This document shows, piece by piece, positions 43,449-53,105 of a stretch of DNA of 64,000 bases (the first letter of the stretch is position 1; each line of letters begins with the position of its first letter). A model generated the notes under the pieces. It searched no databases, had not been told where the DNA came from, and saw only the letters and a program-made list of their open reading frames with translations. The position numbers were made by a program, and so were the translations under genes. This DNA is from Candidatus Dormiibacterota bacterium (lineage in GTDB: Bacteria > Chloroflexota > Dormibacteria > Aeolococcales > Aeolococcaceae). The stretch spans positions 64,001 to 128,000 of the forward strand of contig OY970355.1 in NCBI GenBank assembly GCA_963718525.1, read 5' to 3'.

Positions 43449-45308
43449 TCAGGCGAGCGCCGATTCAGCGGGATCCGCGCCGGCCAGCTCACGAAGCGAC
43501 ATCGGGGCGACAGCGATGCGATCGCGCCCGTCTCGCTTCGCCTGGTACATCGCATGGTCGGCAGCCGCGACCACATCGTCGAGCTCCTGTCCATGATCGG
43601 GGAACACTGCGACGCCGATTGATGCGGTGACACGCGCGATCTCCGACGTCGGGGCGCGCAGTTCCGCGATCGCCGACTGCAGCGCCTGAGCAACCCGCAT
43701 CGCGCCGTCGACCGTCGAATTGGTCAGGACGATCAGAAACTCCTCGCCGCCATACCGGACTGCGTAGTCACTGTCGCGAACCACGCGACGGATGGCGCGC
43801 GCCACCGCGCGGAGCACTGAATCCCCGGCGGCGTGTCCAGCGCTGTCGTTGACCTGCTTGAAGTGGTCGAGGTCCAGGAGCAGGATGCCGACGCCCGCAC
43901 CAGTCCGGAGGCTCTGGGCCATGACCCGCGGTCCCATGTCCCGCCACCAGCGGATGTTGAACAACCCGGTCAGCGCATCAGTCAGGGCTCGCCGTTCCAG
44001 CTCGCCGTACATCTGGGCGTTGCTCCAGGCCGCCGCGGTGACGAAGCCCAGCAGCGCGCACCGCTCGAGATCCTCCTCTGTGAACGCGTCGAGCCCGTCG
44101 CGCCAGATGTCGATGACCCCGAGGCGCTGATCACCCGCTACCAGCGGAATGGCGAGCAGGGATTCCGGTTCACGAGCGGTGCCCGGAATGGTCGAGGCGG
44201 CAGGGTGCGAGTCGGTGTCCGCGCACCGGTACGGCTGTCCGCGCGCAAACGCCCAACCGGTGATGCCTTCGTTCAGGGACACCTCCATCTTGAGGAACCC
44301 CTCGGTTCCAGCGCCGGCAAGAACGCGGGGGCGGAATCGGTGACGTTCCCAGTCCGCTTCGAAGATGGCGAGCCGATCGGCTGCCGTCACGCGACTGAGA
44401 CGTTCCGCGGCGATCTCGAGAATGCGCTCCGGGTCGTGTTCGGCCTGAAGCGTCCGAGCGGCATCCACGAGAAATCGGGCAAAGCTTCGATCGTCGAGCG
44501 TGCCGTCGCCAGCCACCGGCAGCGGGGTCATCTCGATCGGCGCGCGCAGCGTGTCGCCGCGCTCCCGGAAGACCCGGACCTCGCGGCGCTGGAACCAGGC
44601 GACCGGCACCACCTCGTCCATCGGCTGGGCCAGCCCGGCATCGACGACGAGCGGATGTGCGAGATGGGGCCCGACGCCGTACTGGACCCCGAGTTCGGCC
44701 ACCGCGGAGGCTGTTCCCTTGCTGTCGATGCCGCGCGCGACGATGCGGCCTCCGAGCCGGGCGACATACACGACGGCTGCCGCGAGGTGGGCCTTGGCCA
44801 CCTCGTTGTCATTCAGGCCGGCGGGCACAGACGCGTCGAGAAAGACGAAATCCGGTCGGAGATCAGCGATCAGCCGCCGATCGAGCGCTGGTGACAGGAC
44901 CCCGTCGACCGCCAGCAGGAAGCCGAGATCACGGAGTGCCAGGAGGCGTCGCAGCCCCGCGTCGTCGAGATCGGCGTCGATCTCGCTGTGGATGATCCAG
45001 CCGATCTCAGCGGGGTTCACATGATGGTGCTGCGCCATCGCCGCTAGATTGAGATCGTTCGCGGCCAGCACATCGCGGTGCAGCGGAACGAGCAGGACGG
45101 CCGGACCGGTGTGCTGCGCGAACGCCAGGGCGGAGGGGATGAGCGAGCCCGATGGGAGCGCGGCTGGGCGCGGGAGCGCCTCATACCCCAGGTCGACGCG
45201 GTCGATGAGGTCGATCACCGGCTGCAGCGCCACTCCGGTTCCTGCCGGTTTGACGGCACGATCCGACGCAACGCCGCCCATCACTGCAGATTTCAAGCTG
45301 TCCCCCAC
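43449..45308 (-). CDS. Degenerate EAL-GAF-GGDEF diguanylate cyclase
   Basis: YEALPR but lacks DDFG loop and EG(I/V)E; GAF; DLDHFKQVND, RDSD I-site, YGGEEF. Confidence 0.9.
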   Translation of the reverse strand: MGDSLKSAVMGGVASDRAVKPAGTGVALQPVIDLIDRVDLGYEALPRPAALPSGSLIPSALAFAQHTGPAVLLVPLHRDVLAANDLNLAAMAQHHHVNPAEIGWIIHSEIDADLDDAGLRRLLALRDLGFLLAVDGVLSPALDRRLIADLRPDFVFLDASVPAGLNDNEVAKAHLAAAVVYVARLGGRIVARGIDSKGTASAVAELGVQYGVGPHLAHPLVVDAGLAQPMDEVVPVAWFQRREVRVFRERGDTLRAPIEMTPLPVAGDGTLDDRSFARFLVDAARTLQAEHDPERILEIAAERLSRVTAADRLAIFEADWERHRFRPRVLAGAGTEGFLKMEVSLNEGITGWAFARGQPYRCADTDSHPAASTIPGTAREPESLLAIPLVAGDQRLGVIDIWRDGLDAFTEEDLERCALLGFVTAAAWSNAQMYGELERRALTDALTGLFNIRWWRDMGPRVMAQSLRTGAGVGILLLDLDHFKQVNDSAGHAAGDSVLRAVARAIRRVVRDSDYAVRYGGEEFLIVLTNSTVDGAMRVAQALQSAIAELRAPTSEIARVTASIGVAVFPDHGQELDDVVAAADHAMYQAKRDGRDRIAVAPMSLRELAGADPAESALA

Positions 45309-45472
45309 ATTGGTTCTCCGGTCAGCACCGTTCCCCCGTAGGCCCCGTCACACCTTCGCACCGAGCGTCCGACAAATCTGTCTCGCTAGCAGGCCCGGCG
45401 TCACGCGGCTTCTCGCGGCTGCCCGGATGGGCAACCCCAACTCACGACTCACCTTCACGCGGCGGAGGAGCG

Positions 45473-45504
45473 GGACGCCGCCGTCCAGCGTGTCGGCGGC
45501 GTCC
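45473..45504. other. Perfect 11-bp GC hairpin
   Basis: GGACGCCGCCG-10 nt-CGGCGGCGTCC. Confidence 0.6.
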
Positions 45505-45574
45505 ACTACCCACTCCGATCTCACCTGGGGGCGCTCGCGGTTCAGCGGCACACCCCGTCTGGTTCGAATTCCGA

Positions 45575-45709
45575 CTAGTGCACGTGCACCAATGCTTGCG
45601 GCGTGTCGTTGAGTGTCGACGCCGACGCCGCAATGGTCGCCGTCCCCAACGTGAGACTTGCGACTGCGATCACGATCCCCAGTCTGACCCAGCGGTTCAG
45701 CCTACCCAT
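45575..45709 (-). CDS. 44-aa secreted peptide precursor
   Basis: GAGGAGG RBS; MGRLNRWVRLGIVIAVASLTLGTATIAASA-STLNDTPQALVHVH with Sec signal and A-S-A site. Confidence 0.7.
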   Translation of the reverse strand: MGRLNRWVRLGIVIAVASLTLGTATIAASASTLNDTPQALVHVH

Positions 45710-45935
45710 GACGATCCTCCTCAGGACGGTGCCCCTTTTTGACGGTAGGGACATTGTCTTAAGACCACTGCGACGCCCTGCCCTCCCAAGCGGTGACGGG
45801 GTGGTTACGCGGGACTTCGCAACGTATGGCCGAGTTCGGACGGCCCGAGGTCCCACATCTCGGTCCGCTATTGATGTCGCCCTGCGACATGCTCGTCACC
45901 GGGTCCGCGGTTGGCGCGTCCGATCCTGCGACGAA

Positions 45936-48419
45936 ATGCAGCAGGAAACGGGCCATGCCTACTCGTCGCGGCGCGCGCTGCGTACGCTCTCGCAGCTCAG
46001 CCGCAGCATCGCGCGGGCCGAGTTGCGAGACGAGCTGCTCGAACTCACCGGCGGCTGCCTCCGCGACCTCGGATTCCGCAGCTACCTGGCCGAGCTCGAG
46101 GGCGATCACATCAGGTTGCTCGCCGATCCGATCGAAACCGAGTCGCTCGCCCGCGTCGAGACGATCCTCGGTCAGCCGCTGAGCAGCCTCCACCTTCGAA
46201 CCAGTGCACTCCCCTGCGTGCACGCCGCGGCTTCGAGACGCTCACCGGCGACCACCACCGACCTGGCTTCGGCGTTCATGAGCCTGGTGCCGCACCTCTC
46301 GGGAAGCGAGCGGACCGCCCTGCAGCACGAGATCGGTTCGGGTCCGTTCACTGCCGTCCCGGTCGAGCGTGGCGACGACCTGCTCGGCGTGCTGATCACC
46401 TGGTGCACCGGACGCGAGGCGCTCGACGCGCTGCCATTCCTCCAGGTGGTGGCGGCCCAGCTGGGACCGGCCTGGAGGCGCCTCGGTGAGGCCCTCCTTC
46501 CCACACCGGTGCGTGACGATGAGCCCGGGACGACGCCGGACCTGATCCGGGGGCTGATCGACTCGGGCGGCATTCGTCCGGCAATGCAGCCGATCGTCCG
46601 GCTGCTCGACGGCGTCACGCTCGGGTATGAGTTGCTCTGCCGCATCAACCCCGGGGCGGGCCCGCAGGTCCCGAGCGCACTCTTCGACGCTGCGGGTGAT
46701 TCGATGGAGAAGGCCCTGGATGAGGCATGCATCCGCGCCGGCCTGGCGGGCAGCATCCACACGCTGCCCGCGACCCTGTTCCTCAACGTGATGCTGCCGA
46801 CGCTGGCGCAGCCCAACGCCGCGGTGCGGCTGGCCAAGTTCGCGGAGGATGCCGGCGTCCGACCCGAGCACGTGGTCCTCGAAGTGAGCGAGCGCGTCCC
46901 CGTCCCCAACGTCGCTCGTCTGCGTCGCGTCGTGGCCGACCTTCGCTCGCGCGGGTTTCGTATCGCCATCGATGACGCCGGCGCCGGCCACGCAAGCATG
47001 CTGGTGATCGCCGAGGTTCGCCCCGACTTCATCAAGATCGACCGCGACCTCATTCGCGGCGTTCACTCAAGCGATTCACGCCGCGCCCTCGTGGTGTCGA
47101 TGCTCTCGTTCGGCACGCACATCAACGCGCGCATCATCGCCGAGGGCATCGAGACCGAGGCCGACCTCAAGACCCTGATGGACCTCGGCGTGCAATTCGG
47201 CCAGGGCAACGTCCTCAGCGAACCGGTGATTCTCGGCGAGCCGGCAGTCGAGGGCGCCACCCTCGTGCAGCCGTCATGGTTCGCAACACGGCGCGTCGAG
47301 TGCTTCCCCGCGACAGTCGAGCCGGCCGCCCCGAGCCATGAGCCGCCCCGCCGCCGGCCCCACCCCGCGCTGCCGGCGCCGGAGAGCCTTCCCCACGCGC
47401 TCAGCCGCGCCGCGCTGGCACTGCAGGCTGAGCATGATCCGCAGCGCATCCTCGCGGCGATTGCCGAGCAGTTGCAGCGCGTTGTGCCGGTCGACGACCT
47501 GTCGATCTACGAGGCGGATCACAATCACCATCGCTTCGTCGCCGCCTTCGCAACCGGCCGTCAGGCCGCCGAGATCATGGCCGACGTCTTCTCACTGTCC
47601 GTCGGCGTCAATGGTTGGGCCTTTGCGCTCGGCACGCCGCAGAATCTCGGCAACGCGGGTGCACACCCGGCAGCGGCCGCAGTGCCGAACACGCCGTTCG
47701 AGCACGAGTCACTGTTGTTGATCCCGCTCATGGCCGGCGACCACAAGCTCGGCATGCTCAACTGCAGGCGGATGGGGCTCAACCGATTCACCGACGAAGA
47801 CCTCGAGACGGCGACGCTGTTCGGACACACCGCGGCGATGGCGTGGCACAACGCCCAGCTCTACCAGGAGCTCGCACGGCGCGCGGCCACCGACGGTCTC
47901 ACGGGTCTGTACAACAGCCGTTGGTTGCGTGAGGCGGGCGAACTCGAGATCGCGGACTGCCGGCGACGCGGGATGCCGCTCAGCGTTGTGCTGGTCGACC
48001 TCGATCACTTCAAGACGGTCAACGACAGCGGCGGTCACGCTGCCGGCGACGCGGTATTGCAGCGCGTCGCCGCCGAGCTGCGGCGCATCACCCGTGCGGG
48101 CGACGCCGCTGTCCGACTTGGCGGCGAGGAGTTCATCCTCGTGCTCAGAGACGCCGATGGGTCGGGCGCAGCGCGCGTCGCGGCCGATCTTCGTCGGGCG
48201 CTGCGCAACGTCCCGATTCCGGCTGCGTGCTCCGGGATCGACCACGTCACCGCGTCGATCGGGATCGCCAGTTTCCCGGACCAGGGGTCGCGGCTCGAGG
48301 ATCTGATCCGTGCCGCCGATATCGCCATGTATCAGGCCAAGCGCGAGGGCCGCGACCAGGTCAGGCTCTCGCTTTTGGCGTCAGTCACCGAGCCGGTAGC
48401 GGAGGACGCGATCGCCTGA
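45936..48419 (+). CDS. GAF-EAL-GAF-GGDEF bifunctional phosphodiesterase/diguanylate cyclase
   Basis: ELLCR, LFLN, LEVSE, IDDAGAG, IKID, AEGIE, GQG; RAGD I-site, LGGEEF; start uncertain. Confidence 0.9.
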   Translation: MQQETGHAYSSRRALRTLSQLSRSIARAELRDELLELTGGCLRDLGFRSYLAELEGDHIRLLADPIETESLARVETILGQPLSSLHLRTSALPCVHAAASRRSPATTTDLASAFMSLVPHLSGSERTALQHEIGSGPFTAVPVERGDDLLGVLITWCTGREALDALPFLQVVAAQLGPAWRRLGEALLPTPVRDDEPGTTPDLIRGLIDSGGIRPAMQPIVRLLDGVTLGYELLCRINPGAGPQVPSALFDAAGDSMEKALDEACIRAGLAGSIHTLPATLFLNVMLPTLAQPNAAVRLAKFAEDAGVRPEHVVLEVSERVPVPNVARLRRVVADLRSRGFRIAIDDAGAGHASMLVIAEVRPDFIKIDRDLIRGVHSSDSRRALVVSMLSFGTHINARIIAEGIETEADLKTLMDLGVQFGQGNVLSEPVILGEPAVEGATLVQPSWFATRRVECFPATVEPAAPSHEPPRRRPHPALPAPESLPHALSRAALALQAEHDPQRILAAIAEQLQRVVPVDDLSIYEADHNHHRFVAAFATGRQAAEIMADVFSLSVGVNGWAFALGTPQNLGNAGAHPAAAAVPNTPFEHESLLLIPLMAGDHKLGMLNCRRMGLNRFTDEDLETATLFGHTAAMAWHNAQLYQELARRAATDGLTGLYNSRWLREAGELEIADCRRRGMPLSVVLVDLDHFKTVNDSGGHAAGDAVLQRVAAELRRITRAGDAAVRLGGEEFILVLRDADGSGAARVAADLRRALRNVPIPAACSGIDHVTASIGIASFPDQGSRLEDLIRAADIAMYQAKREGRDQVRLSLLASVTEPVAEDAIA

Positions 48420-51014: not shown

Positions 51015-53105
51015 TCACCCGATGGCGCGACGTATGAATTCGAGCGCGAGCAGCAGGAGATTCTCAGCGATCGTCTCGTCGCTCGCCATGTGCGTCGCGC
51101 CGCTGAGAGGAAGCACCGTGTGCTCGCGTCCCGCCGCAAGCAGTGCGCCGGAGAAGCGCAGTGTGTGAGCAACCACGACGTTGTCGTCACTGAGCCCGTG
51201 GATGAGCATGAGGGGGCGAGTCAGCCGGGCTGCGTCAGCAACCAGCGAGACCGCCGCATAGTTCGCCGGCTCGACATCGGGATGCCCCAGGTAGCGCTCC
51301 GTATAGTGCGTGTCGTAGAGGTGATCGTCGGTGACCGGAGCGCCCGCGACCGCCACATTGAAGACATCGGGCCGTCGCAGCACCGCCAGCGCGGCCAGAA
51401 AGCCGCCGAACGACCAGCCCCGGATCGCGACCCGAGCCAGGTCCAGATCCGGCCACTCCGCCGCCGCGGCAACCAGGCCGTCCACCTGGTCCTCGAGCAC
51501 TGGTGCCGCGTAGTCGCCGCGGATCGACCGAGCCCACTGCGGCCCGCCGCCCGGCGTGCCCCGCCCGTCGATCACGAGCACCGCAAACCCCTGGTCCGCG
51601 AACCACTGCGATTCCAGGTAGCCGCTCGCCGATGCGGTCACCTTCTGAGCTCCGGGACCGCCGTACGGATCGAGCAGCACCGGGAGCTTGCGGCTGCCGG
51701 GCTGGTGCCCGTTCGGCAGAACAAGCGCGGCGCGGAGGCCGCGATCACCGAGGGTCGCGAGGCGCACATTGACTCCGATCACCGGGGTCTCGGCGACGGA
51801 TTCGATCGTTCTGACATTGCGGCCATCGCGATGCACAGTCACTCGAACGCCGGGGTGGTCGAGATCCTGAGATGACAGCACGGTGGTGCCCCCCGACGTG
51901 CGAGCTCGCCACACACCCGGGGGGATGCCCTCCGGTTGAAACTGCGCGACGCCGTCCGCGCGTGACCACGTGTACACGCCCACCTCGGTGGGGATGCGCG
52001 AGGCCCTGAAGATGACCACGTCGCCGTCGACATCGAGAACGTCACGCACCTCGAGCTCCGGACTGGTGACCGGCTCGTCCCCGATGAGCAGTCGCTTCGC
52101 ACCGTCGCGGTCGGCGGTCCAGACCAGCGTCCCGTCGGGCAGCGTGGCGGGCACCCCGGTGACGATGTCGACCCACGCATCGTCGATGTCCTCGCGAACC
52201 ACCGACGTCGTGCCCGTCGACGTCTCCACCTCGAGGATCCGCATGGTGCGCTGGTCGCGGCTCTGCACCACAACCAGAAGACCATGCTCCGACCAGTCCA
52301 CCGTGGTGACGTACTCGAAGGCGACGCGATCCCAGTCCACCTCAACCGATCCCGAGCCGTCGACGGCGACGATGTGCAGCGTGACGTCCGCGTTGTCGGT
52401 CCCCGCCGCCGGATAGGCGACCGCGACCGGCGGGCGATCGGGATTGGCCGGATCCGCGATGAACCAGCGGCGAACTCGTGCGACGTCGACGCGGGCCGCG
52501 AGCACGCGAGACCCGTCGGGAGACCACCAGTACCCGCTCTGGCGCGACATCTCCTCAGCGGCAACAAACTCCGCGAGCCCATACGTGACGTCGTCGTTCT
52601 CCGGGCTCTTCAGCACGCGGGGTTCGTCGCCGTCGGTTCGCGACACATGGAGTGCGCCCGCTTCGACATACGCGATACGTGCGCCCGTCGGGTCGACGCG
52701 CGGGTCGATGGCCCGGCCGCTTGCCGCAAGTTCCGTCGCGGCGCCGGAGGCCACGTCCACCACGTAGATCCGTCCCGCGAGGTCGAATGCAACTCGGGTC
52801 ACGTCGCGGTTGGCGGAAAACCGCACGATCCCACCCGAGGATTCGCGCGCGCGCTCGCGACGCATCCGCTCCTCGGCGGGAACCTCGTCAACGTCGACCT
52901 GTGCCAGCGCGGCCGGGTCCACGATGAGGCGTTCCGTGCCGCTGTCCAGGTCGAACTGCCAGAGACACGTGGATGGATCCGTGCCGCTCCGCGTGCGCAG
53001 GAACAGCACACGCCGGCCATCCGGTGCGATGACGAAGTCTCGGGGCACGCCGAGGGCAAAGCGATGTGTCCGTGCCTGCTGTCGGGGAAAGCTCGTCTCG
53101 TTCAC
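51015..53105 (-). CDS. S9 family dipeptidyl peptidase IV-like peptidase
   Basis: YWWSPDG, YGGP, GWSFGG, HGLSDDNV, catalytic His in GATH. Confidence 0.93.
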   Translation of the reverse strand: MNETSFPRQQARTHRFALGVPRDFVIAPDGRRVLFLRTRSGTDPSTCLWQFDLDSGTERLIVDPAALAQVDVDEVPAEERMRRERARESSGGIVRFSANRDVTRVAFDLAGRIYVVDVASGAATELAASGRAIDPRVDPTGARIAYVEAGALHVSRTDGDEPRVLKSPENDDVTYGLAEFVAAEEMSRQSGYWWSPDGSRVLAARVDVARVRRWFIADPANPDRPPVAVAYPAAGTDNADVTLHIVAVDGSGSVEVDWDRVAFEYVTTVDWSEHGLLVVVQSRDQRTMRILEVETSTGTTSVVREDIDDAWVDIVTGVPATLPDGTLVWTADRDGAKRLLIGDEPVTSPELEVRDVLDVDGDVVIFRASRIPTEVGVYTWSRADGVAQFQPEGIPPGVWRARTSGGTTVLSSQDLDHPGVRVTVHRDGRNVRTIESVAETPVIGVNVRLATLGDRGLRAALVLPNGHQPGSRKLPVLLDPYGGPGAQKVTASASGYLESQWFADQGFAVLVIDGRGTPGGGPQWARSIRGDYAAPVLEDQVDGLVAAAAEWPDLDLARVAIRGWSFGGFLAALAVLRRPDVFNVAVAGAPVTDDHLYDTHYTERYLGHPDVEPANYAAVSLVADAARLTRPLMLIHGLSDDNVVVAHTLRFSGALLAAGREHTVLPLSGATHMASDETIAENLLLLALEFIRRAIG

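Follow-up and report, generated by a model that had tools for sequence, protein, structure and literature searches.

What is a reading frame of only 44 codons doing between two enzymes of cyclic di-GMP (c-di-GMP) turnover? The question is raised by a 64,000-nucleotide stretch of contig OY970355.1 from a Candidatus Dormiibacterota bacterium, here called the window, in which this open reading frame (ORF), named pep, occupies positions 45575-45709. The original prediction, made from the letters of the window, had described for it a GAGGAGG ribosome-binding site (RBS), a basic and then hydrophobic N-terminus ending in A-S-A, and a tail of 14 residues, all of which were recovered on the minus strand. 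Pfam searches agreed with its placing of the frame between two c-di-GMP enzymes, co-oriented with one that has a degenerate EAL domain (EGG1) and divergent from the other (EGG2). Comparison with related genomes showed that pep is a genuine protein-coding gene with purifying selection on its signal-like N-terminus and on a C-terminal His-Val-His (HVH) motif, and that it tracks EGG2, not EGG1, selection on pep lapsing whenever EGG2 is absent. As to its role, an exported peptide which feeds into the EGG2-controlled turnover of c-di-GMP is favoured here tentatively, at somewhat less than an even chance.

A Short Gene under Purifying Selection

In this DNA of 66% G+C the size of an ORF is by itself uninformative, since 114 ORFs of at least 30 amino acids are found within 12 kb. 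That pep is a real gene and not a chance frame follows from the conservation of its RBS, start codon, length, and stop together with purifying selection in its frame. GAGGAGG stands 6-7 nt before the ATG in all 20 pep loci compared, the ATG being kept likewise, and 24 distinct intact sequences (orthologues or paralogues) agree in length and stop; in two genomes the product ends in HVHF. Pooled Nei-Gojobori estimates from 23 orthologues gave a ratio of nonsynonymous to synonymous substitution rates (dN/dS) of 0.19 for the signal part (codons 1-31, dS 0.54), 0.83 for the variable core, and 0.25 for the xHVH tail. Variable columns of the signal part are distributed over the three codon positions as 16, 9, and 26 of 31. 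When the six frames were compared over codons 1-30, that of pep had the lowest dN/dS (0.18), followed by the mirrored antisense frame sharing its third positions with pep (0.26), and the remaining four were at 1.0 or above. Although the mirrored frame is open for the most part, it lacks a conserved start and does not run on into EGG2. HVH is conserved as protein, since synonymous codon changes among the genomes (CAC or CAT for histidine; GTG, GTC, or GTA for valine) leave the motif unaltered. The idea that the VHVH codons are kept as a DNA palindrome, GTGCACGTGCAC, was rejected because variants break the palindrome yet retain HVH.

The translated product, MGRLNRWVRLGIVIAVASLTLGTATIAASASTLNDTPQALVHVH, has three arginines within residues 1-9, then a hydrophobic stretch, A-S-A, and the tail STLNDTPQALVHVH. 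By inspection this is the n-h-c layout of a Sec-type signal with small residues at -3 and -1; the call was made in this way and from a Kyte-Doolittle profile (19-residue maximum 2.03), not with a dedicated predictor. The -3/-1 residues are small in every variant found (A-S-A, V-H-A, A-H-A, and V-S-A). The n-region is a conserved stretch of nine residues, MGRLxRWVR, with a dN/dS of 0.18, in which W7 is invariant and R3 and R6 nearly so. No other signal-like small ORF ending in H-x-H was found in the window's own genome.

Coupling of pep to EGG2

When 40 relatives and the window's own genome (41 in all) were searched, full-length pep proved to be confined to the same genus. A profile run against 117 genomes of the family detected it in 25 of 41 genomes of the genus and in the window's own, so that the small ORF is kept at orthologous loci in 26 of 42, as the original prediction required. 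None of 75 genomes from 21 other genera has a full-length copy; in four of them the profile matched weakly and partially, over the hydrophobic part only. Two unpublished genomes, G036 and G100, enter only the tallies outside the genus, probably including the 117-genome search, and their omission changes nothing. Orthologues of EGG1 (76-91% identity) occur in 37 of the 42 genomes, with fragments in three and none in two. Orthologues of the N-terminal domain of EGG2, at least 69% identical, occur in 26, and these are exactly the 26 with pep. The predicted tie to a c-di-GMP enzyme was thereby borne out as an evolutionary tie to EGG2; for EGG1, which persists with or without pep, it did not hold.

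The region upstream of EGG1 was examined in 15 of the 16 genomes without EGG2. An intact long pep is present in none of them, the gene having been deleted, truncated, or left to neutral evolution in at least five different ways. In all 15 a promoter-like block (Table 1) is retained upstream of EGG1, now adjoining the amino-acid permease gene or other flanking DNA. In five genomes (G118, G004, G014, G126, and G129) the RBS and a 31-codon remnant of pep remain open (e.g., MSRQHGRIGLGGAITVRSRGFGMTSTSVQVH), 13 codons having been lost, and G119 has the same form with its stop lost. This remnant lies about 40 nt after the 14-mer GGTCTTAAGACAAT, has an intact RBS and, G119 excepted, uses the same stop as pep. 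Its hydrophobic core is gone in four of the five scored (Kyte-Doolittle maxima 0.46-1.08; 1.78 in G118), its dN/dS is 0.81, and its variable sites number 13, 12, and 16 by codon position. Other short degenerate frames take the place of pep in G019 and G124. In G017 and G123 the block is fused directly to the last pep codons, the hairpin being lost too, and an internal deletion that starts near codon 9 and extends into the 3' arm of the hairpin is seen in G122, G125, and G008. Everything between the promoter-like block and the 5' block of EGG1 is lost in G005, and in G132 pep is lost and the hairpin retained.

The state of EGG2 and pep was placed on a tree of the EGG1 gene calculated with IQ-TREE from 38 genomes (G129, with a fragment of 666 nt, was excluded). 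At least five changes are needed, and well-supported branches alone force five. Sister pairs which differ include G016/G017, G127/G123, and G002/G132, and among independent pairs five of five agree (sign test p=0.0625, the best value five pairs can give). The midpoint root has EGG2-bearing genomes to either side of it, suggesting that EGG2 was present ancestrally and lost repeatedly; the position of the root was not inferred.

Since all 15 loci retain an intact block between pep and the former place of EGG2, the lesions in pep are separate from the deletions of EGG2. This bears on the explanation that the product is an extracellular metal-binding peptide which chelates Cu, Ni, or Zn through HVH and is unrelated to c-di-GMP, its link to EGG2 being only the physical one of a shared, deletion-prone spot. 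His-x-His motifs bind metals, HVH is the sole invariant part of the mature region, and neighbouring genes are often lost together. Yet the intervening block survived, and in six genomes the ORF remained and nevertheless lost hydrophobicity and drifted, which is relaxed selection and not collateral deletion. Nor is there a metal transporter or regulator in the conserved unit, and the explanation appears quite improbable.

Even less is to be expected of pep as a type-I-toxin-like membrane peptide, restrained by a factor from the EGG2 locus such as an antisense 5' leader and harmful once EGG2 is lost. The product is small and hydrophobic with a single helix, its mRNA is structured, and the three separate deletions which part G017 from its close sister G016 (branches of about 0.035) look faster than neutral decay. 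A promoter scan, however, found nothing for an antisense promoter, conservation of a cleavage site and a polar HVH tail is unlike type I toxins as we know them, and two paralogues of pep have no divergent EGG2-like neighbour.

A Narrow Family with Two Paralogues

A word-indexed search of 5.8 billion proteins found 27 clusters of pep, 38-70 amino acids long and all at least 65% identical; 23 of them have 44 amino acids, and the named ones are called "hypothetical protein" by gene callers. When a profile was run, with no limit on length, against 1.84 billion representatives, only four clusters of 44-79 amino acids were obtained. Therefore pep is not a piece of a larger protein, in particular not the truncated secreted protein which the original prediction had itself considered, and the family is very narrow. 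All 19 related loci from species-representative genomes belong to metagenome-assembled genomes (MAGs) of Candidatus Dormibacterota or Dormibacteria, and the host genus consists of uncultured peat-soil bacteria. One cluster, P0021, is labelled by NCBI as a "Candidatus Saccharimonadales bacterium" MAG, probably by an error of binning or labelling. Families matching pep or its leader were found neither in Pfam and NCBIfam (E up to 10) nor in Rfam (E up to 1), and the best look-alikes in the ESM Atlas, unnamed clusters with scores of 0.80-0.85, were below a meaningful level.

Two paralogues of pep carry the same upstream block and RBS. The first (G011:C12, tail ...GPFPPPPPHVH) has a PAS-GGDEF-EAL gene 220 nt upstream of it and a nucleotide cyclase/AAA_16/TPR gene 440 nt downstream, the three sharing one strand. 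With a chance of about 2% that a random gene has a GGDEF neighbour (33 GGDEF domains in 3.3 Mb), this context is suggestive, as a single case. The second (G009:C91, tail ...EPPPPVHVH) has DUF498, SRPBCC, and ABC-2 genes as neighbours with convergent genes ahead, and a metagenome cluster, P0032, is related to it. It argues that pep is able to act in trans, beyond the role of a leader.

Positions 14-40 of the pep profile also match weakly (E 0.002-0.009) a small open frame of 49-128 amino acids in 10 genomes of the genus (e.g., G020:C14:67350-67430, G003:C3:222814-222894, G006:C2:2065949-2066029, and G022:C6:604436-604516). It lies about 94-112 kb from the pep locus in the six genomes with both on one contig, has no match in the window's own genome, and may be another small signal-peptide gene.

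Blocks and Hairpins Upstream of EGG1

The anatomy summarized in Table 1 was derived by aligning 18 orthologous loci and folding 14 loci to a consensus structure.

Table 1. Features of the pep locus, in window coordinates.
Feature	Position	Strand	Description
EGG1	43449..45308	-	Degenerate EAL/GAF/GGDEF protein (GGEEF, RxxD site), 619 aa, GTG start; Pfam and 18-locus alignment
Conserved 5' block of EGG1	45309..45386	-	Directly before the GTG start; in all aligned loci, EGG2-containing and EGG2-less
Long GC-rich hairpin	45464..45516	-	GGAG.G.G..GGACGCCG-loop-CGGCGTCC.GCTCCTCC, without U-tract, between pep and EGG1
Small conserved hairpin	45527..45556	-	18 nt past the pep stop; consensus fold of 14 loci
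pep	45575..45709	-	44-codon ATG-to-TAG gene; basic n-region, hydrophobic core, A-S-A site, variable core of about 10 aa, invariant C-terminal HVH
RBS of pep, GAGGAGG	45716..45722	-	6 nt 5' of the ATG
Promoter/operator-like block	45753..45811	-	Strongly conserved, ends GCGTCGCAGTGGTCTTAAGACAAT; holds the perfect palindrome GTCTTAAGAC; putative role
Second conserved block, TGTCGCAGGGCGACATCAAT (pep strand)	45870..45889	-	Related motif, some 45 nt ahead of the ATG of EGG2
EGG2	45936..48419	+	Weakly GAF-like N-terminus/EAL/GAF/GGDEF, 827 aa, divergent from pep

The 14-mer mentioned above ends the promoter-like block and is found exactly in 40 of the 41 genus genomes and in the window's own, always at the pep locus or at the two paralogue loci; the sole genome without it, G121, is 71% complete and has no EGG1 orthologue either. 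The second block was lost together with EGG2, being absent from the EGG2-less loci compared. The first block seems to serve EGG1, because it stays conserved in the clade in which the pep ORF drifts, and this would put pep, probably, on the EGG1 transcript. As the marker of a regulon the palindrome within the block was rejected: of its three genomic sites the two outside this locus fall within coding regions or at their ends, and a recurrent site with one mismatch coincides with the stop-codon region of a conserved gene. A second conserved site, GGTCTTAAGACGAT, at G000:C1:2675097-2675110 (outside the window) and in 23 other genomes of the genus, covers in the own genome the TAA stop of a conserved gene (...EELSRRHPGS, then stop) and probably reflects coding conservation rather than a second operator.

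In the long hairpin, which follows about 60 nt after the pep stop, the arm with GGAG pairs with an invariant GCUCCUCC. It is possibly a terminator, an attenuator, or a processing site. The hairpin pairs are mostly invariant, so that support from covariation is thin; in the inner part of the long stem G/C swaps on both arms are seen by eye. Of the EGG2-less loci nine retain this hairpin and six have lost it. About 90 variable nt separate it from the conserved block before EGG1. Rfam and a simple promoter and terminator scan on 44800-46400 and 45000-46200 yielded nothing. An ORF of 67 codons with a GTG start (45348-45551, minus strand) starts inside the long hairpin and crosses the variable spacer; it is unlikely to be a gene, because the spacer has many indels among the relatives.

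This arrangement would also fit pep as a cis-acting leader peptide, the translation or membrane targeting of which would control the hairpins and through them the expression of EGG1, and which would be needed only along with EGG2. Even loci that have lost pep keep the promoter-like block before EGG1, so that pep probably lies within the EGG1 leader, and downstream of pep come two conserved hairpins, in the second of which a GGAG tract is paired with CUCCUCC. Moreover, the RBS and the 31-codon ORF are open in five of the six genomes of an EGG2-less clade despite the drift of residues, as for an upstream ORF (uORF) independent of its sequence, and the remnant may be a still-translated uORF of this kind in the EGG1 leader. 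Alongside the shared block and the conserved hairpins no alternative pairing was seen. A leader would, however, not need the conserved signal sequence, cleavage site, and HVH; the hairpins start 18 nt and about 60 nt after the stop, beyond a terminating ribosome; neither a terminator nor an Rfam family was detected at the locus; and the G009:C91 paralogue has the block and an intact ORF with convergent genes and nothing downstream to regulate. A leader function is judged distinctly unlikely.

Secretion monitors such as SecM, MifM, and VemP, which regulate components of Sec or YidC, are related to this explanation. Like them, pep is a short ORF that stands upstream of another gene, with RNA hairpins in between, and encodes an N-terminal signal for export or insertion and a conserved C-terminal motif. 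It differs in that the downstream gene encodes the diguanylate cyclase EGG1 and not export or insertion machinery, in having no known arrest motif, and in the existence of stand-alone paralogues.

The genes flanking the unit (MMPL, MDMPI, DUF347, an ABC-2 pair, amino-acid permease, EamA, and S9 peptidase) are present with or without pep. The last of these, a member of the dipeptidyl-peptidase-IV/prolyl-oligopeptidase family (51015-53105, minus strand), lies 5 kb from pep, whose tail contains proline, and likewise occurs with or without it.

The Neighbouring Enzymes

Both neighbours of pep exceed the Pfam gathering score for GGDEF and EAL. EGG1, located downstream in the same orientation, has a GGDEF domain (150 bits), a GAF domain, and a partial EAL match (48.5 bits) restricted to profile positions 126-236, the C-terminal half; this EAL region is without the DDFG, K, and EGxE/QG positions which we take to be the usual ones. 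In EGG2 a full-length EAL domain (153 bits) is joined to GAF and GGDEF (155 bits). Its first 200 residues give a sub-threshold GAF match (E 0.0035; 18 bits, cut-off 28.6). AlphaFold2 modelled the N-terminal 205 residues with a mean pLDDT of 46.9, too poor for a fold search, and a profile of this region had no match among PDB sequences at E up to 1. Among 11 orthologues of EGG2 the mean p-distance is 0.013 for the central GAF, 0.079 for EAL, 0.112 for GGDEF, and 0.193 for the N-terminal region, and the near-frozen central GAF suggests a conserved ligand.

The start of EGG2 is a conserved ATG (MQQ...) at 45936 and not 45603, because 1-nt indels, present in six of the 18 aligned loci, immediately precede it. 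The longer ORF of 938 amino acids (45603-48419), by which EGG2 would overlap pep in antisense, was rejected for these indels and for want of a conserved start; it is open across pep because its frame shares third positions with pep.

The own genome of 3.34 Mb has 33 matches to the GGDEF domain, a large c-di-GMP repertoire for its small size. Several of its EAL-GAF-GGDEF proteins are about 40% identical to EGG1 and EGG2. Upstream of two such paralogues no small signal-peptide ORF was found; one of them has a divergent membrane protein of four helices.

No membrane segment was found in EGG1 or EGG2, the 19-residue Kyte-Doolittle maxima being 1.41 and 1.44, respectively. This matters for the explanation that the pep product stays uncleaved as a membrane microprotein, a signal-anchor with the N-terminus inside and HVH outside, whose MGRLxRWVR end recruits the soluble EGG2 to the membrane or tunes it there. 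Small membrane proteins are known to tune sensor kinases, as MgrB does with PhoQ. The hydrophobic core of about 20 residues is enough for a membrane span, the n-region with its invariant tryptophan is as constrained as this core, and the coupling to EGG2 would be explained with no need for re-import. The small -3/-1 residues, however, survive three replacements, as would be expected of a cleavage site, the core resembles a signal peptide in its abundance of Gly, Ala, Ser, and Thr, nine residues make a very small interface, and MgrB acts on a membrane protein whereas EGG2 has no membrane segment. A microprotein of this kind is considered unlikely, if still to be reckoned with.

A Possible Exported Signal

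According to the favoured reading of an exported peptide, pep would be expressed from the promoter-like block that also precedes EGG1, the two conserved hairpins lying between the presumably co-transcribed genes. Its product would enter the Sec pathway and probably be cut after A-S-A, releasing a peptide of 13-15 residues which consists of a loosely constrained spacer of Ser, Thr, Pro, and Gln followed by the invariant HVH. Once outside, the peptide, free or loaded with metal through HVH, might act as an autocrine or population signal or as a cofactor. Its level would reach EGG2 either directly after re-import or through a go-between, and the input sensed by EGG2 would shift the balance between synthesis and breakdown of c-di-GMP. 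As the usefulness of pep would then depend on EGG2, decay of pep wherever EGG2 has been lost is what this scheme predicts. The most specific version, in which the HVH peptide is a Sec-exported cell-to-cell or autocrine signal that after uptake is sensed directly by the soluble EGG2, possibly as a metal complex, is put forward as an improbable one. If true, it would give the first case of a peptide quorum signal coupled directly to c-di-GMP turnover, with neither a transcription factor nor a kinase between, and production of the signal would be co-expressed with c-di-GMP synthesis, the pep gene being in the leader of the second cyclase gene.

Export and import are possible in this organism: its genome has two matches to Peptidase_S26 (signal peptidase I) and seven to SBP_bac_5, the peptide-binding proteins of the Opp/Dpp type, none of them at the locus. 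These are necessary and not sufficient, and nothing ties either to pep. Co-folding of full-length EGG2 with the pep product scored 0.00 in two runs, which has no bearing either way.

Several observations weigh against an exported peptide that acts on EGG2. Because EGG1 and EGG2 have no membrane segment, the peptide would need import or an intermediary, and it is chiefly this solubility of EGG2 that stands in the way of any extracellular route; the conserved pep unit contains neither a transporter nor a peptidase. Cleavage and export are predicted by inspection. Only HVH could carry information, because the core is nearly neutral. The covariation between tail and GAF domain which the original prediction had anticipated failed to appear in 11 genomes, where distances of the pep core gave a partial r of -0.23 (permutation p 0.89) with the N-terminal GAF-like region of EGG2 and of 0.015 with its central GAF, which is almost invariant. 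A near-neutral core and this lack of covariation speak against specificity in the style of pherotypes, and the core would fit a spacer before the invariant HVH better than a set of pherotypes. At the G009:C91 paralogue no cyclic-nucleotide gene was found within the 7.4 kb examined.

The coupling itself has limits which count in the same direction. Five pairs cannot give a lower p value than that reported, the tree follows the gene adjacent to pep and not the species, and linked loss is partly expected because pep adjoins EGG2. The comparison genomes are MAG-grade and 61-92% complete, the window's own being closed. Finally, a 1-nt frameshift occurs at the same position of pep in two EGG2-containing genomes, G010 and G011. 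With both genes scored as broken, agreement is seen in 3 to 5 of the 5 pairs (mean 4.5) and the opposite in none. Both are few-contig assemblies; EGG1 is also split in G010, but the G011 locus is not split, and the frameshifts may be long-read assembly errors or real decay. In the few-contig assemblies G003, G006, and G010 EGG1, EGG2, and flanking genes are broken into several frames, a pattern typical of long-read indel errors that bears on the frameshift in G010.

Comparison with Known Systems

The RRNPP systems (Phr-Rap, PapR-PlcR, and AimP-AimR) combine a small Sec-type precursor having a C-terminal active end with a TPR receptor. With Phr, PapR, and AimP pep shares a precursor of about 40-45 amino acids with an N-terminal Sec-type signal and a putatively active C-terminal end, and it is likewise encoded beside a cytoplasmic signalling protein on which its maintenance depends. 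It differs in that Pfam finds EAL, GAF, and GGDEF and no TPR in EGG2 and EGG1, in that no Opp genes are at the locus and the receptor role of EGG2 is putative, and in that co-diversification of peptide and receptor was not found in the 11 genomes. Only one paralogue of pep, that at G011:C12, adjoins a TPR protein, the cyclase/AAA_16/TPR one.

In BDSF-RpfR of Burkholderia and NspS-MbaA of Vibrio an extracellular signal acts through a GGDEF-EAL enzyme on c-di-GMP. The signals there are a fatty acid and polyamines, respectively, and not a ribosomal peptide, and MbaA is a membrane protein with a periplasmic partner. Full-text searching of the literature returned titles and abstract openings in which neither peptide sensing by a diguanylate cyclase or a phosphodiesterase nor c-di-GMP signalling in Dormibacterota is mentioned. 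As far as the opening of the paper on DbfQ-DbfRS of Vibrio cholerae outlines it, a small exported protein is encoded there beside a signalling system of the biofilm lifestyle and acts on it (PMC12714742). DbfQ, in that outline, targets a two-component sensor with a periplasmic part, whereas EGG2 is soluble and pep far smaller.

Significance

The input signals of most bacterial GGDEF/EAL enzymes are unknown. For EGG2 comparative genomics has now supplied a candidate input or partner that can be synthesized, a peptide of 13-15 residues, together with a natural knock-out series of at least five independent losses of EGG2, each with decay of pep, of the kind which usually precedes a biochemical pairing. 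The coupling hints at a link from a peptide to a second messenger. Should pep instead be a membrane partner or a leader peptide, it would still be a new control of a pair of c-di-GMP enzymes. If it acts on EGG2, peptide signalling would be extended to a new class of receptor and to a poorly known, uncultured phylum.

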